DNA of 64,000 nt from IMG/VR virus record IMGVR_UViG_3300043468_001158. One strand, 5' to 3'. The stretch comes from a virus. Taxonomy: Duplodnaviria > Caudoviricetes. The notes under the pieces are model-generated. The model worked only from the letters and a program-made list of their open reading frames with translations, searched no databases and was not told the origin of the DNA. The first letter of the stretch is position 1, and every line of letters starts with the position of its first letter. Of this stretch, positions 42,071-56,923 are shown one piece after another. The position numbers were made by a program, and so were the translations under genes.

Positions 42071-45000
42071 ATGGCAAGAGCAGTTTCTGAAGCACAATTA
42101 CGAGAAGAAACATACCAAATTCTTCTAAAGATAGAAAGAGCACTTAGTAATGGTAGTGCTTCAGTTGGTTCGGGTGGTGATAGAGGAAGTGACCGACGAG
42201 GAGCAGGAAGTGGGACTAACGATAGCGGAAGTAATACTCAAAGTGATGCTGCTCAACGACGTCGTGAAGCCCTACAGAACCGCACTACACAAGAGTTAGA
42301 ACAAACTCTTGATAGTTTGATAAACTCTATTGAAGACTTAAAGAATAGCGTTGAAGGACATGAAGAAAGGTTATCAGATGATAGAAGACAACTTCTTGCT
42401 GACCAACGCGAAGAAGCTCAAATAGCACGTGAAATCATTCTTGAAGCTAGACGTGGGGAAATAGAACAATCAGAAATTATCCAAAATAGTTCGAGAAGAT
42501 TAGGTCGAGCTTTATCAAGTTTGACCGAACCTGTTCGTGCAAACTGGAATGCTTTTGAAGACTATAACTTGAGCATGAACAAATCCATTTCCGCTCAGTC
42601 TTCAATGTTAGCTGGAATGGTCGAAGGTTCAAGTCTTCAAAATGCGGCATATGATAAGTATATTACTAAGCTACTTGATGCAAGTGATACACTATCAAGC
42701 TTTACTAATTTAGGTCGAGAGTTGTCTTCGGTTCAAGATTTGTCTGAAGCAATTGATGAACTGAATAAAGATGGTAAAGTATTTGAAGCATTACTGAAAG
42801 AGCACGGAAATCAAACATCGGAATACATTGAAAGTCTATACGAGCTTGAACAAGCTACTGGTAATTTAACAGACCATCAACGAGAGATTCTGGAAATTGC
42901 AAGAAAAACTAATATGATGGATGAACATGGACGAGTTCAAAATGTTCAGGCTATTCGAAATCATACAAATCAAATCAAAGCTGATATGATAAAAATGCAA
43001 GAGATTGCAGTCAAGCATATGACTATTGCTAAAATGACACAATCGTTCCATGATAAGTTTGGAAAATACGCTAGCGCATTATTTGGAGGCAAAGGCCCAT
43101 TTGGGTTATTTGCTTTAGGTGTTATGATGCTTGGCGATAGCATTGTCAAAGTCTATGACCAGTTTACTAAAGCTGCTGATATTGGTATGCTTGGCGCAAA
43201 TGATTACTTAGGAAGTTTTGCAAGACTCAAAGAAGCACAAGTTCAGTTAGGTATTAGTTTTGAAGAAACTGCTAAAATCTTCCAAGAGAACCGAAGAATG
43301 GCTTATAGCGTTGGTGATAATGTTGGTGATTTTGCAGATGCCTTAGATGAAGGTCAAAAGAGTTTGATTTTGTTAGGCATGGGTAATGAAGATGCTGCTA
43401 AGACTGCGGTTGATTTTGCAAAGAATGCAACTAAAGCAGGTATTGACATCACAAGTAATGATAAAGTAAGAAAGGCTATGAAGACTCAAACGGAAGCATA
43501 TGGCCGATTGAAAGTATTGACAGGTGCTTCAGCTTCAGAGTTCAAAGCTCTTAATGATGAGCTTTTTGACGCTCAATCTGTTCAAGAGCAATTGAATGGT
43601 ATAGGTCGAGACGAGCGAGAAGTAAGAATGAATGCGATGTTCAAATTACGTGAAGACTTCGTCAAGTTAGGACTTTCAGCTCAATCCGCTAATAAAGCAC
43701 TTATCTCTATTCAGGATTTAGGCAAAGAAAAGTTAGCAGACAGATTTACCCAAGCAGCAAAGTTCCAACAATTAGCAGGTGTTCTTGGAATGAAGAATGC
43801 AGCTCAACTTGGTCAAATAGTTCGTAAAGGTGATAGAGCTACAGCTGATGAGAAGAAAGAACTAATGGAAGCTGCGGTTGAAATGCAAAAACGCGCTGAT
43901 GTTAGAAGACGCGGAAGTTATGGCGATGAGAACATTATCCAGTCTTTAGTTGGTGGTTTATCAGGACCGTTACTTGCTATGATGGAACAAGGACGAGAAG
44001 CTTCTAAAACAACCGATGCTTTAGGCAAGTTTGCTGAGAAAGCTTTTGGTCGTCAAACCGTTGATGGAGATATCAAGATACCGCCTTGGGCAGCAACATT
44101 GATTGACATTGGACATAGTATTGAGACTGTTATCACTGACCCGATTGTAAAAGCTATTGGTGGAATTGCTCTTGCTGCTGGTGGCTTGCTTCTGCTTTTT
44201 AGAGCCGGAGGTTCAGTTATTGAAACTTTCAGAAGCATGAAAAATTCGTTGTTCAATATTGACAAGAACACTGGTAGTATGTCATCATCGACAGGTGATG
44301 ATAGTAGTGGTGGAACCGCACAAGAAAGAGCTGAACGACGTAGAAGAGAAGAAAGTCAAAGAAGAAGACGAGGTGGGGTTAGAAATAGAACGACACCTGC
44401 AAGACCAAGAGCTGGAAATGTTAGCCGATTAGCTGGGGCGTTGAAGCCAACAGGTTTTGGAGTTGGTGCATTAGCTTCAGGTTTAGCGGCTAATGCTATT
44501 ATTGACAATCAAACTAACCCGGAAACTGGCGAAGTATCAACTGGCGGAAAATTGGCTGCAATGGCATCAGGCGCGATGTCCGGTGCATCATTGGGAATGC
44601 TATCTGGTAACCCGTTAGTCGGTTTAGCAGGTGGAGTGATTGGCGCAGGTGTTGGTTTATATGGTGCATCGGGAGGAGGAGAAGGTTCAAGTGATGCGTC
44701 TCCAACATCTGGTATATCAAGTTCATATCCGGTAGGAACGAATCCCCCATCAATCTATAGTCCACAACCATCTGCGTCAACAGCTTCTAGAGTAACCCCA
44801 ATAGGTGGTTCAACTGCTGGAACATCAAGTTCAAGTAGTTCAAACGAAGCTGATGCTCCAGTTATTAGGCTGTCAAAAGATACTATCGCTAAACTTGGTA
44901 ATTATCTAACAACTTTGAATGACACACAAACTAAGTCACTAAATATAGAACAAGACCAGCTTGATATGCTTGCCGCATTAGTGACAGCAAGTGATGAAGC

Positions 45001-45085
45001 TTATAAGAATGCAAAAAGTCTCAAACCAATTCCAGGTCATTCATCATTATTTGGCAGAGGTGGTCGTTATGAATATATCAACTAA
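42071..45085 (+). CDS. Tape measure-like protein (1004 aa)
   Basis: Long helical Ala/Gly/Leu-rich protein with hydrophobic Gly-rich stretches, divergent from gp26 and upstream of the portal. Confidence 0.7.
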   Translation: MARAVSEAQLREETYQILLKIERALSNGSASVGSGGDRGSDRRGAGSGTNDSGSNTQSDAAQRRREALQNRTTQELEQTLDSLINSIEDLKNSVEGHEERLSDDRRQLLADQREEAQIAREIILEARRGEIEQSEIIQNSSRRLGRALSSLTEPVRANWNAFEDYNLSMNKSISAQSSMLAGMVEGSSLQNAAYDKYITKLLDASDTLSSFTNLGRELSSVQDLSEAIDELNKDGKVFEALLKEHGNQTSEYIESLYELEQATGNLTDHQREILEIARKTNMMDEHGRVQNVQAIRNHTNQIKADMIKMQEIAVKHMTIAKMTQSFHDKFGKYASALFGGKGPFGLFALGVMMLGDSIVKVYDQFTKAADIGMLGANDYLGSFARLKEAQVQLGISFEETAKIFQENRRMAYSVGDNVGDFADALDEGQKSLILLGMGNEDAAKTAVDFAKNATKAGIDITSNDKVRKAMKTQTEAYGRLKVLTGASASEFKALNDELFDAQSVQEQLNGIGRDEREVRMNAMFKLREDFVKLGLSAQSANKALISIQDLGKEKLADRFTQAAKFQQLAGVLGMKNAAQLGQIVRKGDRATADEKKELMEAAVEMQKRADVRRRGSYGDENIIQSLVGGLSGPLLAMMEQGREASKTTDALGKFAEKAFGRQTVDGDIKIPPWAATLIDIGHSIETVITDPIVKAIGGIALAAGGLLLLFRAGGSVIETFRSMKNSLFNIDKNTGSMSSSTGDDSSGGTAQERAERRRREESQRRRRGGVRNRTTPARPRAGNVSRLAGALKPTGFGVGALASGLAANAIIDNQTNPETGEVSTGGKLAAMASGAMSGASLGMLSGNPLVGLAGGVIGAGVGLYGASGGGEGSSDASPTSGISSSYPVGTNPPSIYSPQPSASTASRVTPIGGSTAGTSSSSSSNEADAPVIRLSKDTIAKLGNYLTTLNDTQTKSLNIEQDQLDMLAALVTASDEAYKNAKSLKPIPGHSSLFGRGGRYEYIN

Positions 45086-45098
45086 TACGGAATACTAA

Positions 45099-46823
45099 AT
45101 GGCAACTTTACAAAGTTACTTCAGAATAATCACTCCAGTATCGAGTCAGAAGCAATATACTCAATTGCATGCTGACTCGACTAATATGAATGGACCTAAC
45201 GGGTTCTCAAACGCTGCATCGTCTGTTGCTTTTCTAACTCAAGTAATGAAAGGCGCTGGAACTCGTATGCAACGATACATTCAGTATGATAGCATGGATA
45301 ATGATATTGACATCTCTCGTGCTCTTGATATTATCGCTGAAGAAATATCAAATGACGACGAAACCACCAATCTTCCATTCGAAATAGAGTATCAAACTGA
45401 AGATGACCAGGAAGTATCGGAAAATACCGTTACTACTATTCGTGCGGCTCTTAGACAATGGTCTCGCGTTCAAGACTTTAGCAATCGCATCTTCCGCATT
45501 GGTCGCATTATGTCAAAGTATGGCGACTGCTTCTTCAAGAAGTCGGCTGATACTAAAAAGTGGGAATACCTTGACCCATCTAAAGTATTGGGTATCTATC
45601 TTGACGAAAATGGTGACCGAGTTGCATACCAACTAAAAGGCGATGGTGGTGGAATGGTTGGATATGCAGGTAAGGTGACTGATGTAGAGGTCGTACCTGC
45701 TGCAGGGATTATCCACTTTACCCTGTCTGATGACATGGGTGAAAGTGCTCCATTCGGCGAAAGTGTTCTTCAACCAATCTTTAGAACCTTCAAACAGCTT
45801 TCAATGTTAGAAGACTCTGTCATCATCTACCGTCTTGTTAGGGCACCTGAACGTCGAGTCTTCTATGTTGACGTTGGTAATATGCCTCAACAACGTGTTA
45901 AGCAATATCTTGAGAACATCAAGAATGAGATACGTCAAAAGAGAATGCCTAACACAACCAACAATCAAGACGTCATCGACGGAACTTATAATCCTAACAG
46001 TATCTCTGAAGACTATTACTTTCCAGTGACTGCCTCAGGTCGTTCTTCTCGTGTAGAAGTATTGCCAGGTGGCGAAAACTTGGGTGAATTGAATGAGTTG
46101 AAATACTTCCGTGAAAAGCTTTACAAAGGCTTACGTGTTCCAACCTCTTACTTAGGTGGAGCAGATGCACAACCTCAACAATACAATGACGGTAAGTTAG
46201 GTGTTGCACTTCTTGACGAGTTACGATTTGCCAACTACATCCGTCGATTACAGAACAAGATTGAATGTGTGATGGACGAACAGTTCAAACTCTATCTCAA
46301 AACGATTGGTATCAATGTCGAAGATTGGTTATTCCTTCTTAGATTACCTGAACCACAAAACTTTGGTATCTACCGTCAAAATGCTCTTGACTCAGACTTA
46401 ATCAATGCATTCAAATCGATTGAAGATGTCAAACAGTTGTCAATGAGATGGAAACTAAAACGTTACTTAGGCTTAACTGAAGATGACTTGCAAATGAATG
46501 AGAAAATGCTCAAACAAGAACTTGAGATTGATGAAGATGCTAATGTTTCTGATTTACGTCAAATCTATGACCCAGTTCAAATGGAAGCTAGACAAGCCGC
46601 GAAAATCAAACCTAAACATATCGAGTCAGATGAAGCTCCGGCTGGTGGAGGCGGAGGCGGAGATGAGTTAGGTATGGACATGGGAGGAGGAAGCCCTCCT
46701 CCAGGTGATGATTTAGGTGGTGGTCTTGGTGGTGATTTAGGTGGTGGTCTTGGTGGTGGAGCTGACGACATGGGACTTGGAGCACCAGGAGCCGGTGGTG
46801 GCATGGACAATTTAGGTCTATAA
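45099..46823 (+). CDS. gp20: Portal protein, T4 gp20-like
   Basis: KQLSMLEDSVIIYRLVRAPERRVFYVDVGNMP and EDYYFP...VEVLPGGENLG are gp20 signatures. Confidence 0.97.
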   Translation: MATLQSYFRIITPVSSQKQYTQLHADSTNMNGPNGFSNAASSVAFLTQVMKGAGTRMQRYIQYDSMDNDIDISRALDIIAEEISNDDETTNLPFEIEYQTEDDQEVSENTVTTIRAALRQWSRVQDFSNRIFRIGRIMSKYGDCFFKKSADTKKWEYLDPSKVLGIYLDENGDRVAYQLKGDGGGMVGYAGKVTDVEVVPAAGIIHFTLSDDMGESAPFGESVLQPIFRTFKQLSMLEDSVIIYRLVRAPERRVFYVDVGNMPQQRVKQYLENIKNEIRQKRMPNTTNNQDVIDGTYNPNSISEDYYFPVTASGRSSRVEVLPGGENLGELNELKYFREKLYKGLRVPTSYLGGADAQPQQYNDGKLGVALLDELRFANYIRRLQNKIECVMDEQFKLYLKTIGINVEDWLFLLRLPEPQNFGIYRQNALDSDLINAFKSIEDVKQLSMRWKLKRYLGLTEDDLQMNEKMLKQELEIDEDANVSDLRQIYDPVQMEARQAAKIKPKHIESDEAPAGGGGGGDELGMDMGGGSPPPGDDLGGGLGGDLGGGLGGGADDMGLGAPGAGGGMDNLGL

Positions 46824-46888: not shown

Positions 46889-47509
46889 ATGTCACAACAA
46901 ATATTACTTACTGAAGACCTAACTCCTGATCAAGCTAACTTAATTGAAAGCATTGATGATGGCAAAAACTATTATCTTTCTGGCATTATGATGCAAGCAG
47001 GCGTTATCAATGGAAATGGCCGCGAGTATCAATTAGCAGAAATGTTGAAAGTTGTTGAAGAAAACTCTAAAAAGATTGCAAGCGGTCAGCTAATCATGGG
47101 TGAGCTGACCCACCCTAACAATATCGCTATCAACCTTGCCAACGTATCTCATGCTATTACTGAAATGAGAATGGATGGTTCAAACGTAGTTGGTAAAATG
47201 AAACTTTTGAATACTCCATCTGGTCAAATTGCAAAAGCGATTCTTGAAGGTGGTGTTAGACTTGGTGTTTCTTCTCGTGGTACAGGTTCAGTCGGTGCTG
47301 ACGGTAAAGTATCTGGCTTTAGCTTTGTGACTGTTGATATCGTTGATAATCCTTCAGCTCCTGATGCTCGCCCTAACCTTGTTCGTGAAAGCTTAGAAAA
47401 TCAAAAGATAGTAACCTTAGCTGAAATTGTGGTAGAAGACAAAAGTGCTCAAAAGCATTTAGAAAAAGAAATCAAAAAATTCTTACTATCAATAGTTACA
47501 AAAAAATAA
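46889..47509 (+). CDS. gp21: Prohead core protease, T4 gp21-like
   Basis: NGNGREY, GELTHP, VSH, LGVSSRGTGS and DIVDNPSAPDA motifs. Confidence 0.97.
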   Translation: MSQQILLTEDLTPDQANLIESIDDGKNYYLSGIMMQAGVINGNGREYQLAEMLKVVEENSKKIASGQLIMGELTHPNNIAINLANVSHAITEMRMDGSNVVGKMKLLNTPSGQIAKAILEGGVRLGVSSRGTGSVGADGKVSGFSFVTVDIVDNPSAPDARPNLVRESLENQKIVTLAEIVVEDKSAQKHLEKEIKKFLLSIVTKK

Positions 47510-47530: not shown

Positions 47531-48007
47531 ATGAAACCAGAAAAATCAATGAAAGAATTGTTTGAAATTGCTGGTATTAAAGATATTGATAAAGCTCTAT
47601 CTTTGATTACCGAAGTTAATCTACGAGAAGTCGACCTTACTACAAAACAAATTGCCGATAAAATAAGTGCAGCATTTGAAAAAGATTTTGGTTCGCTTAG
47701 AACCAGCGAAACTGAAAACCTGTCGAATAAAATGTATAAGCTAATTGTAGATAAAGATTTTCTTGATGGAAAAACACCTGTTGCTAGATTTAGAATACCA
47801 GTTATTACAAAAGCAAATGATTTGCATAACATTCACAATTCTTATGAAGCATTTAACAAAATACTAGATAAGTTCTACAATTCTTTACGTAATGAAGGAT
47901 ATCTTATAACTCAACCAAAAGGCGGGTATATTAAGGGTGATACTTGGGAAGGCAATGGAACAGTTGGAAATATCATGACATTTTTTGTAGCAGGAAAACC
48001 GGAGTAA
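47531..48007 (+). CDS. Putative capsid-internal protein 1 (LFEIAGI tag)
   Basis: N-terminus MKPEKSMKELFEIAGIKDIDKALSLITE; remainder unknown. Confidence 0.6.
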   Translation: MKPEKSMKELFEIAGIKDIDKALSLITEVNLREVDLTTKQIADKISAAFEKDFGSLRTSETENLSNKMYKLIVDKDFLDGKTPVARFRIPVITKANDLHNIHNSYEAFNKILDKFYNSLRNEGYLITQPKGGYIKGDTWEGNGTVGNIMTFFVAGKPE

Positions 48008-48013
48008 GTCAAA

Positions 48014-48640
48014 ATGAAATCAGAAAAATCAATGAAAGAGCTGTTTGAGATTGCAGGTATTAAGGATATTGACTCAGCTCTGTCTTTGATTACTGAGGCA
48101 TCAACTTCATCAGCAGGTTGGGCAGACTGGAATGATACTTTACGAGATGCGTTACAGATAATACTTATTGGTAAAGAACTTACCCGAGTTACTTTATCTG
48201 ACCCATCATCAGCAGTCATTATAAAAAATGTTGCATTTAATTCTTTTCGTGACCCTGAGAAATTGTTAATCATTTATGATAAAACTATAGATTGGCATCC
48301 GCTAAGAGAGCATAAAGAATATCAACAAGGCATGCTCAAGAAGATAAAAAGCTTTTTACCAAAAGGTAGTAAAGTGGGTGGATATGAAAGTCAAAACTAT
48401 CAATCACAAGGGATGATAGGCATTGATGGAGTAAAAATAAAAGCTCAATATCCTGGCAATTATGTTGGCGGTTTATTGTCTAATGTCAAAGATAAAGTTC
48501 CGGTTATAGTTGGAGCTAAAGCATCAGAACAATTATTAGAGGCAGCAAAGATTGTCAATGACGCCATTAAGAATAACGTAAATGTCATTGCATGCCAACG
48601 AGAACTAATTGAAAAGAATTTAGACGAGTACGCAGAATAA
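48014..48640 (+). CDS. Putative capsid-internal protein 2 (LFEIAGI tag plus conserved C-terminal domain)
   Basis: N-terminus nearly identical to the 47531 protein; ends GGLL...ACQRELIEKNLDEYAE. Confidence 0.6.
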   Translation: MKSEKSMKELFEIAGIKDIDSALSLITEASTSSAGWADWNDTLRDALQIILIGKELTRVTLSDPSSAVIIKNVAFNSFRDPEKLLIIYDKTIDWHPLREHKEYQQGMLKKIKSFLPKGSKVGGYESQNYQSQGMIGIDGVKIKAQYPGNYVGGLLSNVKDKVPVIVGAKASEQLLEAAKIVNDAIKNNVNVIACQRELIEKNLDEYAE

Positions 48641-49233
48641 TGAAAATTAACGAACTATTTACTGAAGCAGCACCAACTAAGTTTAATAAAGACCTATACG
48701 TTTTAAATTATATAAAAGAAAAACTTATTGGAAAAACATTAGTGATGCATAATGAAAACATGGCAGTACGTGATTCACGTAGTATGATGAAATTAGAAAT
48801 AACTGATATTGATATATGGAAACGTGGATGGAATGATTATCAGATTTATGTAAATGGACTTAAGAAGATGCCTATATGGCATAATCCAAGTAAGAAAGCG
48901 CTAATGCATCCCTATGGAGATAATTCTATAATTTCTCAAATTAAAGTACTTCTCGGAACTGATATGAGTTTTTCTGTTAGTTGGACTGAAAATGGGCAAC
49001 AATCAAAAAACTCTTTAGGAGTTTTTATTGATATGTGGGAGTATGATAATAATTTTAAAGGGGGCTTATTGCATCATCTTAAATCTAAAAAACCAATTTT
49101 AGTTGGCCCAAATGCCAGTAGTGAATTAAGAATGTCGGCTGATATTATCAATTCTTGTATTCAAAAAAATACCGACATCGTTGCATGTCAACGAGCATTA
49201 ATTGAAAGAGACTTAGACGAGTACGCAGAATAA
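48640..49233 (+). CDS. Putative capsid-internal protein 3 (MKINELF tag plus conserved C-terminal domain)
   Basis: Starts MKINELFTE; ends ACQRALIERDLDEYAE; TAATG coupling. Confidence 0.6.
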   Translation: MKINELFTEAAPTKFNKDLYVLNYIKEKLIGKTLVMHNENMAVRDSRSMMKLEITDIDIWKRGWNDYQIYVNGLKKMPIWHNPSKKALMHPYGDNSIISQIKVLLGTDMSFSVSWTENGQQSKNSLGVFIDMWEYDNNFKGGLLHHLKSKKPILVGPNASSELRMSADIINSCIQKNTDIVACQRALIERDLDEYAE

Positions 49234-49835
49234 TGAAAATTAATGAACTGTTTGAAAAGGTAACTTTACAAGAAGCATCGTTAGGATTTGCTGAGCATAA
49301 TGATATTCTATTGTTTTTTATTCAAAAGAAACTTGTCAAAAAACAATTGAAAACCAGTAAATCGCTAATCATTGATGAAGTAACCAAAATAGCTTCTCCT
49401 GATAGTAAAGAATATAACATTAGTTATACAATTCAAGGTGAAGAACCAGGTCCACGTAAACATCAAGTAGATTACAATGAAGATGCGGAAAATTTAGCAA
49501 TTTCAAAAGAAAAACAATTATTTGGAAAATTAATTGAACCATTAATTGCTAACGGGACACAAGTTGAAGTTTTACGTCAATCACGAAATTTTGTTAAAGG
49601 CAATGGTTCTTTTGGCACAACAATACAGGTGCCAATTCAATACGACAATAAGTTTGTTGGTGGTTTATTGCGTCATGTCAAAGAAGGAATCCCTGTTATC
49701 ATTGATGAAAATGCAATACCTGCGTTAAAACAAGCAGCAAAAAAAATAAATGAATATGTTTTAAAAAATAACACAGACATTATTGCATGTCAACGAGAAA
49801 TGATTGAGCGTGATTTAGACGAGTACGCAGAATAA
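49233..49835 (+). CDS. Putative capsid-internal protein 4 (MKINELF tag plus conserved C-terminal domain)
   Basis: Starts MKINELFEKVTLQE; ends ACQREMIERDLDEYAE; TAATG coupling. Confidence 0.6.
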   Translation: MKINELFEKVTLQEASLGFAEHNDILLFFIQKKLVKKQLKTSKSLIIDEVTKIASPDSKEYNISYTIQGEEPGPRKHQVDYNEDAENLAISKEKQLFGKLIEPLIANGTQVEVLRQSRNFVKGNGSFGTTIQVPIQYDNKFVGGLLRHVKEGIPVIIDENAIPALKQAAKKINEYVLKNNTDIIACQREMIERDLDEYAE

Positions 49836-49876
49836 CAAAATTTAACCCCCGAACACTTCATACGGAGAATTATAAA

Positions 49877-50254
49877 ATGAAAGACTTTGAAAAACTAATG
49901 AAAATTGCTGGAATTACTAATATCAATGAAAATGCTTTCAGCCAAAGCATTTATAGTGATGAAAAAGATTTTGAAACTAAAGAAAAAGCAATCAAAGGAA
50001 AACTCTTTAATGATCTTAAATCAAAAGATGAAAAGAAAATTGCATATGACTTAATATCAGAAGCAGAGCTTCTTCTTGGTCAATTCAATATGATGGTAAA
50101 CGATTTTGATAAGTATCTTGGTGTTCCTAAAACTGAAAGATTTTACCATGAAGTAGTACGTTTTGGTGAGGCACTTCAGGCTCATTGTAAAAAAATAACC
50201 GGGTTTGACGGCGTTCAATCCTTAAATTTACATGTACATAGCTTAAAGGACTAA
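49877..50254 (+). CDS. Putative capsid-internal protein 5 (IAGI tag)
   Basis: Starts MKDFEKLMKIAGITNINE; GGAG RBS. Confidence 0.6.
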   Translation: MKDFEKLMKIAGITNINENAFSQSIYSDEKDFETKEKAIKGKLFNDLKSKDEKKIAYDLISEAELLLGQFNMMVNDFDKYLGVPKTERFYHEVVRFGEALQAHCKKITGFDGVQSLNLHVHSLKD

Positions 50255-50258
50255 GATA

Positions 50259-50558
50259 GTGAAAACTCTTCAACAACTATTTGAAATTGCTGGCATCAAA
50301 GACATTGATAAAGCAATGGCAATTCTGAATGAAGACGACTTTCACACAATACTTTACAAGATTGATAAATGGATGCCTAGTGATTTATCAATTCAAGATG
50401 AGTATGATGATTTAGTTAGTAAAAAACATAAATCTTCAGCTGATGTTGAAGATTTAGCAGCTTTATTGTATAGAGAAGCAGATGAAGAAGTATTAAAGAA
50501 ATACGGTTTTAGTGGTAATTGGAAAGCTTTAGCTAATTATATTATTACTAATAAATAA
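50259..50558 (+). CDS. Putative capsid-internal protein 6 (LFEIAGI tag)
   Basis: GTG start; MKTLQQLFEIAGIKDIDKAMAILNE. Confidence 0.6.
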   Translation: MKTLQQLFEIAGIKDIDKAMAILNEDDFHTILYKIDKWMPSDLSIQDEYDDLVSKKHKSSADVEDLAALLYREADEEVLKKYGFSGNWKALANYIITNK

Positions 50559-50606
50559 AATCTAATAATGTAAATAGATTTTTATAATAATTGTAGTAGG
50601 AGATTT

Positions 50607-51338
50607 ATGTATTCGTTTTATCTAATTTATAGAACTATATGTATAGTGAATAATAAATTTTATATAGGAAAACATAAAACAAACAATCTTAACGATAATT
50701 ATTTAGGTAGTGGAAAACTTCTAAAAACCGCTATTGCCAAATATGGCAGAAATAATTTTGTTAGAGAAATATTACATTTTTGTTCCTCAGAAGAAGAAAT
50801 GAACGAGTTAGAGACAAAAATTGTAAATGCCGAAATGATTATGCGAGAAGATACTTATAATATTGCTATTGGCGGACAAGGAGGGTTAGGTGTAGCTCAA
50901 TGTATTTCTGACGAAAAACGAAAAGAAATGACTGATAGAATGGCACAAACCAAATCGGGAAGGACAAAAGAAGATTTTGAGTATCTACAGCGAATTAGTA
51001 ATAAACTGCTTGGTAAAAATAAATTTAATACAGAACATCATAGAAAAAATTCAGAAAGAATGTCTAAAGAAAATAAAGAAAACTCTGAAAGATGTAGAAC
51101 ACATTCTGAATTTATGAAAATAAAAATGAAAGGAGCAAATAATCATAATGCAAAAAATTGGATATTAGAAAATCCAATCGGAGAAGTGATTGAGACCGGA
51201 GACATAACGCTCTTTTGTCAAGAACTTGATTTAGCATATTCAATTTTTAGATATAAAGCTCAAGTTCAAAACACTCTTCCTGTAACTAGGGGTAAAAGTA
51301 AAGGATGGAAAGTCATTTCATCATATTCAAAAACGTAA
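50607..51338 (+). mobile_element. Free-standing GIY-YIG homing endonuclease (Seg-like)
   Basis: LIYRTICIVNNKFYIGKH...YLGSG...AIAKYGRNNFVREIL...E catalytic module followed by a basic helical DNA-binding region. Confidence 0.9.
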
Positions 51339-51359
51339 TAAAACTTAGGAGATACACAT

Positions 51360-51539
51360 ATGTCAGAAACGAAAGATTCAATAAGAAACTTCATTCAAAG
51401 CTTAATTAAAGATAATACAACTCAAGCAGAAATGGATTTACATCCAGTTTTTACCACTAAAATGAAAGAGATAGCCGGCATTCAATCAAAACCTTCAGGC
51501 GAAGATTCTATTTCTTCTGAAGAAGATAATGACGAGTAA
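51360..51539 (+). CDS. Prohead core protein, gp67-like (59 aa, not in ORF track)
   Basis: Manual translation MSETKDSIRNFIQSLIKDNTTQAEMDLHPVFTTKMKEIAGIQSKPSGEDSISSEEDNDE; AGGAG RBS; acidic tail; next to the scaffold gene. Confidence 0.7.
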   Translation: MSETKDSIRNFIQSLIKDNTTQAEMDLHPVFTTKMKEIAGIQSKPSGEDSISSEEDNDE

Positions 51540-51562
51540 AAATCAAATTTATAGGTAACTAC

Positions 51563-51570
51563 TATAAATA
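51563..51570 (+). promoter_or_regulatory. T4-type late promoter TATAAATA
   Basis: Exact match upstream of the scaffold and capsid genes. Confidence 0.8.
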
Positions 51571-51626
51571 AAGTTAGCACCCTTGAATTAGGGTTTTAGA
51601 TAATCAATATATCTTTGGAGGTAAAT

Positions 51627-52547
51627 ATGGATGAAATTTTACAAAAGTTGTTAGAAACAGACCTACTTAGCGAAGACACAAAAACCGAAATCTCAGAAGC
51701 ATGGGCTGAAGCTGTTGAAGCTAAGCGTGCAGAAATTAGAGAAGAAGTATCTTTGGAAGTTCGCGCAGAGTTAGCTGAACAATTTGTTGTTGCTCGTGAA
51801 GCATTAGTCGATAAGGTTGATGCATTTGTTACTGAACAACTAAAACAATCATACATCGAATTGAAAAGCGATATCGAACGTTTTCGCGATTTGGAAGCTG
51901 AGTTCGCTGGTAAACTAGTTGAAGAAAAGAAAAGATTAGCAGAAGAAGTTGAGTCTGAAATCGAGTCTTTAGTTGATAAATTGGATTCTTTCTTGGAAGT
52001 TAGACTTTCAGAAGAATTTGAAGAAATGAAAGAAGATTTAGAAGTTGTAAAACAAAATGACTTCGGTAAACGTGTATTTGAAGCGTTCGTAACCGAATAT
52101 TCAAAATCATATGTTGATGAAACTTCTATTCAATCACAATTAAGTATTGCAGAAAGTAAATTGGCTGATGCTGAAAAACGTATGCAAGAAGTTGAAACTG
52201 AAAAAGCACAATTAGTTCGCGAAGCTAAAATGCAAGACGTGTTAAGACCACTTTCTGGTTCAAAACGTGAGCAAATGAGTTTTGTTTTACAAAACGTTGA
52301 AACTGAAAAATTAGAAGAAGCTTATGGTTACTTCATCGGTCGTATTTTGAAAGAAGAAGCTGCTGCACCTAAATCATCCGCTACTGTCGCAAAAGACAAA
52401 GTTATTTCTGAAGACAAAGCTTTAGAAGACGCAGTCGTTCTTGCAACTGGTGATGATGAAACTAAACAGCCAATCATTTCTGAACAACAACAAAAATCTA
52501 TTGCTGATTTAGCGTTCTTAAAAAGAATTGCCGGCATAACATCTTAA
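51627..52547 (+). CDS. gp22: Prohead scaffold protein, T4 gp22-like
   Basis: Acidic coiled coil with KVDAFVTE, KLDSFLE and RVFEAF; between protease and capsid genes; start MDEIL after GGAGG. Confidence 0.9.
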   Translation: MDEILQKLLETDLLSEDTKTEISEAWAEAVEAKRAEIREEVSLEVRAELAEQFVVAREALVDKVDAFVTEQLKQSYIELKSDIERFRDLEAEFAGKLVEEKKRLAEEVESEIESLVDKLDSFLEVRLSEEFEEMKEDLEVVKQNDFGKRVFEAFVTEYSKSYVDETSIQSQLSIAESKLADAEKRMQEVETEKAQLVREAKMQDVLRPLSGSKREQMSFVLQNVETEKLEEAYGYFIGRILKEEAAAPKSSATVAKDKVISEDKALEDAVVLATGDDETKQPIISEQQQKSIADLAFLKRIAGITS

Positions 52548-52585: not shown

Positions 52586-53878
52586 ATGGAACTTTTTGAA
52601 AATTGGTCACAAACCAAAGAAGCTTTACTAACTGAATTACCTGCTCATAAAAAAGCCTACATGGGCCGTATTATGGAAAACACTAAACAACAGTTGATGG
52701 AAACTGCTGCTGCTGGTGTTAACGCTGCAGGCGCAATTGGTAATTTCCAAAAAATCATTATCCCAATGATTCGTCGTATTATCCCTGGCACTATCGCTAC
52801 TGAACTTGTTGGTATCCAACCAATGTCAGGTCCAGTATCTTTAGCGTACTCATTACGTTTCCTTTTCTCTCAAAATACTGATGTTCCAACTGTTAGTTAT
52901 GTTACTAATCCAGATGGAACTATTTCTGCTGTGAACTTAACACCAGGTGCTGGTCCTGAAGACATCATCGGTGCTGGTTTAGTTGACCCAGTAACTGGTA
53001 CTTATTTAGGTGCTACTGAAGTATTTGGTAACAACAGCAAAACTAAACGTTGGTATTCTGGTGCAATCAATGCTGGTGGTATGGCTCTTGGTACTGCAGC
53101 TCTTACAGCTGACTTCGAAGCGTACGGCGGACGTCAATTGCAATTAGAAGTATTGAAACAAACTGTTACTGCTGGCTCACGTAAATTACAAGCTAAATGG
53201 ACAGTTGAAGCGATGCAAGACCTTTCAGCACAACATGGTTTAGACCTTGAAGCTGAAATCACTGCAGCTCTTTCTGCTGAAATCGTTTCTGAAATCGACA
53301 ACGAAATCATCAATGACTTGATTGCTCTTGCTGGTACTGTTGAAACTTTCGACATGAATGGTACTTTCACTGGTGTTCCTAACTATGTTGGTGACCGTCA
53401 TGCAGTTCTTGGTACTTTAATCAATAAAGTTGCAAACGAGATTGCTCGCAAAACTCGTCGTAATGCAGCTAACTGGATTGTTGTATCTCCAATCGTTGCT
53501 TCAGTATTACAATCTGCTGCAAAATCAGTATTTGCTCCAGCAGTAAGCGGTTCATTCGAAGGTCCTAACAACACCAAATTGATTGGTACTTTAAACGGTT
53601 CTATCAAAGTTTACACTTACATCTATCATGACACTGGTTCTGAGCCAATCTTGGTTGGTTACAAAGGTGGAAACGGCGAAATGGATACCGGTTATTTCTA
53701 CTGCCCATACGTTCCACTTATGAGCTCAAACGTATTGTTTGACCCTGCAACTTACAACCCACAAGTAAGCTTGATGACAAGATATGGAAAAGCTACATTT
53801 ACCGATACTGCTACTTCGTTGGGCAATAGTGCCGATTACTATGGTCGTGTGAATGTTGCAAATCTTTCATTCATCTAA
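52586..53878 (+). CDS. gp23: Major capsid protein, T4 gp23-like
   Basis: GIQPMSGP, VTAGSRKLQAKWTVEAMQDL..QHGLD.EAE, EIDNEII, YCPYVP and LMTRYG motifs. Confidence 0.97.
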   Translation: MELFENWSQTKEALLTELPAHKKAYMGRIMENTKQQLMETAAAGVNAAGAIGNFQKIIIPMIRRIIPGTIATELVGIQPMSGPVSLAYSLRFLFSQNTDVPTVSYVTNPDGTISAVNLTPGAGPEDIIGAGLVDPVTGTYLGATEVFGNNSKTKRWYSGAINAGGMALGTAALTADFEAYGGRQLQLEVLKQTVTAGSRKLQAKWTVEAMQDLSAQHGLDLEAEITAALSAEIVSEIDNEIINDLIALAGTVETFDMNGTFTGVPNYVGDRHAVLGTLINKVANEIARKTRRNAANWIVVSPIVASVLQSAAKSVFAPAVSGSFEGPNNTKLIGTLNGSIKVYTYIYHDTGSEPILVGYKGGNGEMDTGYFYCPYVPLMSSNVLFDPATYNPQVSLMTRYGKATFTDTATSLGNSADYYGRVNVANLSFI

Positions 53879-53933: not shown

Positions 53934-55481
53934 TTACCCATCTGACAGTTCTAATTGATATTTTAGTTGTCCTGCATCCGAAATAGAATACCATCCTAGT
54001 GAGTCCCAATAATCTTTAGTGATAATATCATGTCCTAAATGAGCAGGTCTTCTAAATCCCCATCGATGTTTTCTTTCAGTAAAGTTAGTAAAGAATACGC
54101 CAATCTTAGTTTCACCTACTAATGAAAAGCCCAAGGTTTGATATACATTTTTATTATAATCAGTCCATCGCAAATCTGCCCAAGAAATAATTTTCTTTGT
54201 TGGATTATTTTTTATAAAACATGATAATAATTTCCCTGCACCACCAATAATCTGATAATCACTATGAGTTGCATAACGTAATAACTCCCACGTATTACCA
54301 TCATCAATTTGGTTCATCATTATTCGAGGTCTGCAAAATGTCATTACTGCTACTAAATCAATACCAGTGAATAATCCAATTTGCACTTTAGATTTTGCTG
54401 AACCTTGAATATGATATTGATTTAGAAATAACGTAGCTTCATTTGATGAAATAATTTTAGCTTGTAATTTACGTGCAAAAAGTTTCGTTGAAACATTACA
54501 ACCAATAATGTTGATGATTTTATTTTTTACTAAATCTTTTTTTGACAACCATTCATCTTCAAAAATTTGAACTAATCTAATTCCACGTTCTTTACATAAT
54601 TCATATTTTTTCCGATGCTTATACCTATCATAACCAGCTTTACTTGAATGCCAATATAAGCCATGATATTCGATAGCAATGTTTTTGCTTGGAATATAAA
54701 TGTCAAGTTCTAAGTTATTCGGAAGAATACTTTTATTATGTCTAACAATTTCAACATATTGAGACACAAAGTCAGCCAATTCTACTTCAGCTTTACTTTC
54801 TCCTTTTAGAGGAGGGAAGCAAGTATGACATAAAGTATTAGCAAATTGATGCTTTTTCAAAGTAACTAATGCAACATTCGAAACGTTATTACATGTACTG
54901 CATTTGATACTAAATCTAAAATTGCCTGATATGAAATGTTCACTATTTTCTAAAACTTCACCCCATTCAATTTGAAGATTAGTTTCTAGTTTTTTAGCGG
55001 TTTCTTCTTTCCTTCGCTTAGCAATTTTTTCTAGGTGAGGTATTTGAAACTCCATTCTTTCATCAGAAAGTGGAGGTTTTGGATTGTTATGATAATATTC
55101 ATTTAGCGCAATACTCAGTTTTTCACGATATTCATCTGAACGTTCATGAGTTCTACCAGTATTGAAATGCTCTCCATTTTCTGCAGCTTCTTTAGATCGT
55201 TGTCCAATACCATTCTTTTGTTTATCAGAAACCCTACCTTCTTGCCAAAGTTTTTTTGTAGTTTCAACAAGTTTAGCTTTAGTTTTAGTTTCTTCTGAAT
55301 GACCTTTACCTTTTAGGGGATGATTGTCACCAGACTTTTTTGCTTTTAGCTCTGGTGAATATCCAAATGGAGCATCATTTCCAAACTGTTCAAAGTATTC
55401 TTCTTTAGAAAAACCATGAGCTTTTAGATGTTGCTTATCAATTTTAGATAGCTTTCGGTTACATATTGGACATTCAATCAT
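53934..55481 (-). mobile_element. Hef-like homing endonuclease (Zn-finger, Vsr/DUF559-type nuclease, C-terminal GNAT-like part)
   Basis: CPICN...HLKAH; CSTC and CHTC; ELDIYIPSKNIAIEYHGLYWHS; QIFEDEW; LFARK...ELLRYA...GGAGKL...SWADLRW. Confidence 0.8.
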
Positions 55482-56158: not shown

Positions 56159-56923
56159 CTAGTTATCAAAATCGACAATATGTTGATGGAGCTTCTTGAG
56201 GAACCGCTTCCAAATGCGTTGGTCAAGTCGTTCTTCTGAAGTGCCAAAGTGTGTCCAATACTTGGTGATAGATGTGCCAATGGTGTCTTGTTTGGAAGTC
56301 TCGTTCTTTAGGTTATCTATAGAGTGCAAAATTTTGTTCTTGTCATTGTCAAATCTATTCATTAGCATCTCTGCTGTATTGACAGCAAGTGCTTCAATTT
56401 CTGATGGGTTGCTAAGGTAAGGCTTTATCATCACTTCCCCTTGGTCATCATGATAGTTAGAACGTTTGATGCTCTTTTCTGTAGGAGTTCTTTGGTTTTG
56501 AACTGCATGGGTTAGTTCATGCAGTAGGATAGCAATGGCAAGAGAAATGAACTTGTCTCGCTTAGCATCTCCAAAGTAGGTTGCTTTATTGACCAAATCG
56601 AATGGTATGTAAAACTCTAACCCACCATACCCGGCTGCGAAAGAACCAATACGTGCATGTCCGCTGTCGAAGTAAGCTTCTTTAGCCCCTTGGATGACAA
56701 CAGTCTTTACACCAAACTCTTTTAGCTCTTGTGCAATTTTAAGTTCAAGCTTTTTGATGGCTTGGATGCTTTCACTTATTTGTTCTAATGGTTTATAATG
56801 TTCATCAAAGATTTCAAGCTTACCGGAAAGCTTTTCAAGCTCTAAGCGGATGATTTTGTTCAACTTTGCTCGTATATCGGTAAGATTGATTTTTTCAGTT
56901 AGGAAGAGTTCGCGTACTTTCAT
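56159..56923 (-). CDS. Putative HEXXH zinc metallopeptidase with capsid-targeting-like N-terminus
   Basis: ILLHELTHAVQ and YLSNPSEIEA; starts MKVRELFLTE; TGTAAATA upstream at 56962-56969. Confidence 0.65.
   Translation of the reverse strand: MKVRELFLTEKINLTDIRAKLNKIIRLELEKLSGKLEIFDEHYKPLEQISESIQAIKKLELKIAQELKEFGVKTVVIQGAKEAYFDSGHARIGSFAAGYGGLEFYIPFDLVNKATYFGDAKRDKFISLAIAILLHELTHAVQNQRTPTEKSIKRSNYHDDQGEVMIKPYLSNPSEIEALAVNTAEMLMNRFDNDKNKILHSIDNLKNETSKQDTIGTSITKYWTHFGTSEERLDQRIWKRFLKKLHQHIVDFDN

Follow-up and report, generated by a model that had tools for sequence, protein, structure and literature searches.

Four small proteins encoded in the head gene module of an uncultured jumbo myophage begin with related leaders built around the tetrapeptide IAGI, and the same tetrapeptide stands at the extreme C-terminus of the scaffolding protein of this phage and inside a 59-residue protein encoded just upstream of the scaffold gene. 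The module lies in a stretch of 64,000 nucleotides (Duplodnaviria; Caudoviricetes; IMG/VR virus record IMGVR_UViG_3300043468_001158), which as a whole is called the window here. Judged from aligned relatives, IAGI is the window phage's version of a clade-wide pattern, h-x-x-h-x-x-[LI]-A-G-[ILV], and the leaders that carry it are referred to as IAGI or LAG leaders. With a probability of about 0.7, the leader is a capsid-targeting propeptide that would mimic the C-terminal docking peptide of the scaffold and would be removed by the S77 prohead protease.

Leaders and their shared motif in the window

The proteins in question are encoded as follows (aa, amino acids; nt, nucleotides; CTS, capsid targeting sequence).

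47531-48007, + strand: cargo candidate 1, 158 aa; IAGI leader at residues 1-28 (nt 47531-47614), ending LITE
48014-48640, + strand: cargo candidate 2, 208 aa; IAGI leader at residues 1-28 (nt 48014-48097), ending LITE
48640-49233, + strand: paralogue of 48014, 197 aa; short leader MKINELFTE, no IAGI; start overlaps the preceding stop (TAATG)
49233-49835, + strand: paralogue of 48014, 200 aa; short leader MKINELFEKVTLQE
49877-50254, + strand: cargo candidate 3, 125 aa; leader at nt 49877-49930
50259-50558, + strand: cargo candidate 4, 99 aa, GTG start; leader at nt 50259-50333, ending ILNE
51360-51539, + strand: small protein, 59 aa; acidic tail; internal K-x-K-E-IAGI (KMKEIAGI), with IAGI at nt 51471-51482
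51627-52547, + strand: scaffolding protein, 306 aa from ATG; phrog_10922 (E 1e-22), weak T4_CASP match; relatives annotated as scaffold

Exact IAGI occurs six times in the window against 0.57 occurrences expected from composition (34,517 residues in open frames of at least 50 aa, six frames), and 100 shuffled controls contained 0.21 copies on average and at most 2. All six copies are on the + strand, within 5 kb and in the head module: four in N-terminal leaders, one in the 59-aa protein, and one at the scaffold C-terminus. An earlier note on this DNA had placed the six motifs at these sites and had described four related N-terminal leaders, each ending in (I/L)xE; both observations are confirmed.

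The leader of 47531 is MKPEKSMKELFEIAGIKDIDKALSLITE, and the leader of 48014 is the same with S for K. Those of 49877 and 50259 are MKDFEKLMKIAGITNINE and MKTLQQLFEIAGIKDIDKAMAILNE. The four leaders are 18-28 aa long and end in LITE, LITE, INE, and LNE (in the order 47531, 48014, 49877, 50259). They resemble hybrids in which MKELFE is followed by IAGI. Over residues 1-30, 47531 and 48014 are 87% identical, and beyond this they are unrelated. The leader-coding DNA of these two genes forms a 96-nt repeat, 85% identical, that takes in the ribosome-binding site, and a 43-nt repeat is present in four copies.

The earlier note had similarity between the proteins stopping at the leader end. This is correct for 47531 against 48014, but 48014 is itself related over its full length to 48640 and 49233 (E ~1e-23), paralogues that the note had treated as plain unknowns and that carry a second, T4-CTS-like leader. 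Its count of six unknown genes between protease and scaffold stands, but the interval holds eight open reading frames (ORFs), the other two being a GIY-YIG gene and the 59-aa ORF.

Leaders in related head modules

IMG/VR was scanned with the window protease, which gave 66 loci; L-numbered loci (e.g., L003-L007, L032, L098) are related head modules compared with the window. Forty-five ORFs between portal and scaffold (39 unique, from 33 loci) start with M-x(2-8) followed by L..L..LAG[ILVM]. In both these leaders and the scaffold tails, positions -6 and -3 are L, position 0 is L/I, +1 is A, +2 is G, and +3 is I/L/V. Positions -1 and -2 set the two apart, the leaders having E/Q and L where the tails have R and K.

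A putative cleavage site, [LIVMF]xE, lies within 28 residues of the motif in 38 of the 39 unique leaders. Its distance from the Gly is 4-8 residues in 25 of 39, a range in which 15% of other ORFs have such a site. The median leader length across the clade is 17 aa; leaders of the window subclade are longer and place the predicted cut 14 residues past the Gly. The mature bodies predicted to follow belong to 24 unrelated families (blastp E <1e-3).

The strict leader pattern is confined to the head region: 28 of 239 unique ORFs in the portal-scaffold interval carry it, and 0 of 1076 ORFs in the flanks do (Fisher p 5e-22). The earlier note had named a motif as frequent in non-virion early proteins as in head proteins as grounds for refutation, and this distribution runs counter to that condition. 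The profile scan over related genomes that the earlier note had suggested was carried out with 32 leaders (profile A1) and ten whole phage genomes. In RsoM2USA (E 6.5e-5) and a 336-kb IMG/VR genome (E 7e-6), the gene following the protease is the best match, with few or no further matches. Nothing in the T4 genome matches profile A1, even at E values up to 10. Comparative evidence (39 leaders, 24 families, a Glu site in 38 leaders) strongly supports the earlier proposal that one core-assembly peptide is reused as a removable label on unrelated payloads, with the removal itself predicted.

These comparisons also bear on whether the leaders have a common function at all. They could be remnants of recent duplication or recombination among neighboring genes, a reading that draws on the 96-nt repeat of 47531 and 48014, ribosome-binding site included, and on a leader remnant in L004 and L005 that likely marks a recombination scar. 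Against it, the pattern is kept where proteases are only ~50-60% identical, it is always N-terminal on 24 unrelated families, the Glu site is present in 38/39 leaders, and the leader matches the scaffold tail position by position. Functionless remnants are therefore a highly improbable explanation.

The scaffold tail and the 59-residue protein

The scaffolding protein ends in FLKRIAGITS (terminal peptide ...LAFLKRIAGITS; IAGI at nt 52527-52538). Its start is probably ATG 51627 and not TTG 51615, because GGAGG lies upstream of the ATG and the resulting MDEIL start is that of its relatives. One further element was noted upstream of the gene:

51563-51570, + strand: T4 late-promoter-like box TATAAATA

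As a marker of late promoters this box was set aside, since the window holds 5 matches against 5.8 expected, and it serves as a positional hint only.

In the scaffold profile, conservation extends over residues 1-245, gives way to a variable, gappy stretch at residues ~250-295, and returns in the tail. The layout across relatives is that of a peptide on a flexible tether. The tail ...L..[LM][KRQ][RK][LI]AG[ILV](K) is found in 49 of the 66 loci, with 38 unique tails, and the same ending is present in the cultured phages PA5oct (LRRLAGIK), RAS14 (LRKLAGIDF), and XacN1 (MMKLAGIKG). RsoM2USA (LKELGGVN) and 121Q (VLSGINKK) have variant tails. In 121Q (L077, record positions 272694-272738), an internal ...SRMLSLAGINEEE motif is also present within a 331-aa acidic ORF. 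The pattern L..L[KR]R-LAG-I-K is compatible, as a sequence, with an amphipathic helix followed by a hook.

The 59-aa protein is conserved just upstream of the scaffold gene across the clade, and its clade relatives carry K-T-[RQK]-[EQ]-[VLI]-[AST]-G-[LM], which makes this third class of carriers clade-wide as well. The earlier note had labeled it gp67-like. No similarity to T4 gp67 is detectable (hhalign probability 0.6% with a 19-member clade profile), and no Pfam family matches, so homology to gp67 was rejected; the two proteins agree only in size, acidic tail, and position in the head module.

Carriers in virions of PA5oct

The complete genome of PA5oct, a cultured relative, contains the helix-plus-LAG pattern in three proteins only: the scaffold tail, gp203, and gp235. 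Protein gp203 starts with MFNINDILRLAGVQAVKE at its exact N-terminus and contains a second, internal copy followed by VEE; in gp235, a protein of 208 residues, the motif is found around residue 160. Predicted cuts in gp203 fall after AVKE, which would leave Ser19 as the mature N-terminus, and after NVEE near residue 258. In other cultured carriers, cuts are predicted after LLE at residue 16 of RsoM2USA ORF380 and after LNE in a 360-aa protein of RAS14. Both are annotated in the record as 'structural protein, ESI-MS/MS' (electrospray ionization tandem mass spectrometry), and the PA5oct virion proteome comprises 93 virion-associated proteins among 461 coding regions (PMC7318152). The presence of these two carriers in virions (n=2 proteins) is supportive of head targeting and not conclusive.

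Cargo candidates and the variable protease-scaffold interval

Cargo candidate 1 has a predicted mature body of 130 aa with an isoelectric point of 8.1, and GGAG precedes its ATG. The body of candidate 4 is acidic, has 74 aa, and is conserved in L003, L005, L006, and L098. The body of 48014 belongs to a paralogue family with a C-terminal ...ACQRELIE..LDEYAE domain. Pfam and PHROGs searches with the six unknown proteins of the window and ten cargo proteins of relatives returned no family.

A word-indexed search found 3 relatives of 48014, and an exhaustive profile search found 37, all unnamed. The 37 representatives share only the ~60-aa C-terminal domain of 48014 (...IIACQRELIENDLDEYAEL), and nearly all start with MK[IV]xELF. 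Proteins P0011-P0041 of this domain family are ~200-290 aa long, and several have leucine-rich-repeat-like middles. The AlphaFold2 model of 48014 has a predicted local distance difference test score (pLDDT) of 77, with low confidence for the leader and cut site. No significant fold match was found for this model: the best Foldseek matches have E 0.44 in the PDB and E 0.11 in the AlphaFold database clusters, and a wide VIA-align search gave a best Z of 5.1 to a generic alpha/beta sandwich. For 47531, the Atlas search returned weak structural neighbors only, from a poor model.

Leaders are portable between bodies. In the 48014 family, some members have a long IAGI leader and others a short one, MK(I/L)xELF...L(T/Q)E, and the predicted cut sites of both fall into one column of the alignment; that of 49233 aligns with the LITE-A junction of 48014. 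The family member P0015 starts with MDLHRAKQLAGLIPLYE and is encoded in the protease-scaffold interval of L098. This locus has four consecutive LAG-leader genes after the protease, including homologues of the 50259 and 48014 families, and these homologues carry the LAG flavor of L098 itself.

The gap between protease and scaffold ranges from 11 to 4106 bp among 54 loci; that of the window is the longest and has the most tagged genes. Cargo content differs between phages whose proteases are 83-98% identical. In two relatives, a truncated 47531 homologue that retains the C-terminal half is preceded, in another frame, by a leader remnant, MKTPQQLFEIAGINV, and a stop:

L005:9010-9331: leader remnant and truncated 47531 homologue
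L004:8300-8621: leader remnant and truncated 47531 homologue

This arrangement is likely a deletion or recombination scar at the leader. A cargo gene at L032:6396-6683 has a tandem double leader (LAGLPLKE ... LAGLPLVE), which, together with the second motif of PA5oct gp203, suggests polyprotein-like or multi-cut propeptides. As compared across these loci, the protease-scaffold interval is a hypervariable locus of predicted cargo shaped by recombination at the leaders.

The variability of this locus weighs on a different account, in which the tagged proteins are assembly factors like T4 gp67, gp68, and IPIII. They would enter the core through the shared peptide, assist in building or sizing a very large head, and afterwards be broken down and leave it, with none delivered. 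The motif is indeed common to the scaffold and a conserved small core-like protein, the genes sit within a morphogenesis operon, the bodies are small and without enzyme signatures, and T4 IPIII mutants build heads more slowly (PMC9026906). Against it, gene content is hypervariable even at 83-98% protease identity, the bodies form 24 unrelated families, and PA5oct gp203 and gp235 were found in mature virions; many relatives also have no such gene, which would not be expected of assembly factors. An exclusively structural role is accordingly unlikely, and targeting of cargo remains the preferred reading.

A second leader class resembling the T4 CTS

The window encodes a second class of leaders, found at 48640 (MKINELFTE), at 49233 (MKINELFEKVTLQE), and in a protein outside the protease-scaffold interval:

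56159-56923, - strand: 254-aa protein; leader MKVRELFLTE; HELTH motif and a downstream Glu invariant in five homologues

The leaders MKINELFTE and MKVRELFLTE resemble the T4 CTS MKTYQEFIAE (M1, K2, F7, L/I8, E10), which was located twice in the T4 genome. A leader of the form MK-x-x-ELF...L-x-E serves the two untagged paralogues of 48014 and probably also the HEXXH protein at 56 kb. The latter has no Pfam family, and its AlphaFold2 model (pLDDT 36.5) is unusable; it is a possible packaged metallopeptidase, that is, a candidate cargo encoded outside the module.

Two related loci contain a protease-scaffold ORF that starts with MITFKQFIAEE, near the T4 CTS (L057:1362-1667, L058:10909-11214). The scaffold of the L057/L058 phage has a LAG tail, so both tag types coexist within one head module. 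T4 gp22 (L070:118-927) has the N-terminus MLKEQLIAE followed by A, which resembles the CTS and has the same I-A-E cut motif.

Proposed mechanism

By analogy, the terminal peptide of the scaffold is most likely a docking element that ties the scaffold into the prohead. A tagged protein would take the docking site of the scaffold tail during prohead assembly and so co-assemble inside the shell. The S77 protease would then cleave after Glu and remove the tag, and the unrelated mature body would be left free in the head. For the window phage, we infer presence in virions, cleavage at the predicted Glu, retention in the mature head, and injection; injection and anti-defense roles are a speculation by analogy with T4 IPI. 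The idea that cleavage takes place at the LAG motif itself was rejected: the cut of S77 proteases comes directly after a Glu, and none follows the motif in the scaffold tail.

The docking partner is most likely, by analogy with the 80alpha scaffold and CpmB, the capsid protein, through its inner face or its N-terminal propeptide; a core protein ranks second and the protease third. The N-terminal ~40 aa of the capsid protein are strongly conserved and end in L-x-E (alignment A2). Complex prediction for the capsid protein (A2) paired with 50259-family residues 1-36 (A3), run without controls, scored 0.00, which speaks neither for nor against binding.

Docking on the protease itself would turn the LAG peptide into an exosite ligand: the scaffold tail would recruit the protease, and the leaders would make their proteins good substrates, for example so that zymogen-like proteins are activated by loss of the propeptide. 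Most leaders do have the motif 4-8 residues before the predicted scissile Glu, tagged genes directly follow the protease gene, and an exosite would make sense with the very short cleavage determinants of gp21-type proteases (PMC9026906). The scaffold motif, however, is at the extreme C-terminus with no Glu site beyond it, and the leaders of the window have their cut site 14 residues after the Gly. Scaffold C-termini bind capsid protein in solved systems (PMC5644958), and a soluble substrate tag would leave the virion presence of the carriers unexplained. Protease docking is therefore very unlikely compared with mimicry of a scaffold docking peptide.

Several observations count against the targeting propeptide. 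The window phage is known from its sequence alone, and the virion data come from its relative PA5oct, for which no statement on processing of gp203 or gp235 was found in the PA5oct paper (PMC7318152). The motif of gp235 is near the C-terminus, and that of gp203 is also internal; the peptide is thus not strictly an N-terminal signal. The differences between leaders and tails at -1 and -2 may mean weaker binding or another site. The agreement of leader and tail in I or L within a genome (I-I 8/8) comes from one or two lineages only. The label 'payload' is an assumption, as no cargo has a recognizable function. Finally, 32 of 54 modules have no recognizable LAG-leader gene by the strict pattern, which undercounts, and the tag is therefore optional.

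A broader formulation is that, in a large clade of jumbo phages, the LAG peptide acts as a movable helix-and-hook element for docking to the interior of gp23-type procapsids, interchangeable between the scaffold C-terminus, the inside of the small core protein, and the N-terminus (at times an internal or tandem site) of freely exchangeable cargo, and that targeting tags generally are copies of scaffold termini (LAG of the C-terminus, T4 CTS of the gp22 N-terminus). This generalization is tentative and rather less probable than the propeptide function itself.

The head module and its relatives

A T4-type head module, with genes for a portal, an S77 prohead protease, a scaffold, and a gp23-type capsid protein, occupies 42-54 kb of the 64-kb window on the + strand and belongs to an uncultured jumbo myophage. 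The remaining genes of this region are:

42071-45085, + strand: 1004-aa protein just upstream of the portal; Gly/Ser-rich with hydrophobic stretches
45099-46823, + strand: T4 gp20-type portal, 574 aa; Pfam Portal_T4, E 1.2e-89
46889-47509, + strand: prohead protease of T4 gp21 type, Peptidase_S77, 206 aa; PF03420, phrog_207
50607-51338, + strand: GIY-YIG (SegE-like) homing endonuclease, by Pfam; between the cargo genes and the 59-aa gene
52586-53878, + strand: major capsid protein of T4 gp23 type, 430 aa; Pfam Gp23, E 3.6e-96
53934-55481, - strand: 515-aa protein directly after the capsid gene; NUMOD3 motif and weak REase_MTES_1575 match

The protease matches PF03420 with E 8e-24 and 84.6 bits (curated cut-off 27) and phrog_207, head maturation protease, with E 6e-54. 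The window thus has the full set of gp20, gp21, gp22-like, and gp23 head genes by which a T4 CTS system is judged. No Pfam family was found for the 1004-aa protein; its positional counterparts in PA5oct (EST35_0148) and 121Q (gene 597) have structural-protein annotations. The GIY-YIG endonuclease is in the same place in the 98%-related fragment L003 and is lacking in L005-L007. The 515-aa protein is probably a second homing or mobile endonuclease of the head module.

A megablast search of 50,697 phage records returned no DNA-level relatives of the module. The closest cultured phages by protein are the jumbo myophages RsoM2USA, XacN1, Xoo-sp13, CM1/RAS14, Phosso, and PA5oct; the capsid protein of RsoM2USA is 60% identical to that of the window. 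The RaK2/121Q group is more distant, and the IMG/VR fragment L003 has a protease 98% identical to that of the window.

Relation to known loading systems

The internal proteins and Alt of T4 have an N-terminal CTS of 10-19 residues that has affinity for the scaffolding core and is removed by gp21 after L/I-X-E (PMC9026906). The first 10 residues of IPIII suffice for loading foreign proteins (PMC9026906, PMC5694885). The T4 CTS system with IPI, IPII, IPIII, and Alt (Mullaney and Black 1996; PMC9026906) resembles that of the window in its short N-terminal propeptide, unrelated small proteins, L/I-X-E end, and S77 protease, and in both the cargo set varies between related phages. The IAGI/LAG leader, however, is a different sequence, and its profile matches nothing in T4. 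T4 gp22 ends in ...VYAKVASRF, and the T4 CTS resembles the N-terminus of gp22, whereas the window tag copies the scaffold C-terminus. The cargo genes of the window phage also lie inside the protease-scaffold interval, and their packaging, cleavage, and injection are predicted.

The scaffold of phage 80alpha has in its last 16 residues an amphipathic helix and a hook (RIIK) that bind the N-arm of the capsid protein, and CpmB of SaPI1 copies this peptide and competes for the same capsid site (PMC5644958). The likeness to the window lies in a conserved terminal scaffold peptide, compatible in sequence with an amphipathic helix and a short hook having one basic and one hydrophobic residue, that is copied by another protein, which thereby would gain a procapsid site. 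The copy in CpmB is C-terminal, retained, and part of the competing scaffold of a satellite. In contrast, the copies in the window are N-terminal, followed by a protease site, and carried by many unrelated phage-encoded proteins, with capsid binding predicted only.

In phiKZ-like giant phages (SPN3US, 201phi2-1), a gp21-related protease processes many internal head proteins after Glu, and conserved N-termini on diverged paralogues are thought to be targeting signals (PMC5694885). Their propeptides differ in being mostly >100 residues long, with an S/A-X-E cleavage motif. No gp22-type scaffold is known in these phages, so scaffold-tail mimicry has not been proposed there. No description of the present tag was found in the literature searched, from which subscription journals mostly fell outside, and this is not proof of novelty. 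The loading principle is known from T4; the LAG tag and its proposed origin from the scaffold tail appear to be new.

Cargo-loading peptides of encapsulins are likewise short terminal peptides that dock on the interior of an HK97-fold shell and load unrelated cargo; they are usually C-terminal, are not removed, and act without a maturation protease. Encapsulation by fusion to the P22 scaffold is man-made and also has no maturation protease. The T4 CTS has been used for decades for loading foreign proteins into phage heads. To our knowledge, the question of what it binds in the T4 core has stood open since 1996.

A tag that is a visible copy of the scaffold tail makes this question concrete, namely whether the leader competes for the docking site of the tail. 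If targeting tags do copy scaffold termini, this would explain CTS binding and give a ready-made loading tag for jumbo-phage heads. The rule L..L..LAG[ILV] followed by L-x-E lists candidate packaged, and possibly injected, proteins across a widespread group of jumbo phages, whether cultured or uncultured, with PA5oct, RsoM2USA, and RAS14 among them. If the cargo consists of anti-defense or takeover proteins, the protease-scaffold interval would be a rich source of such genes.

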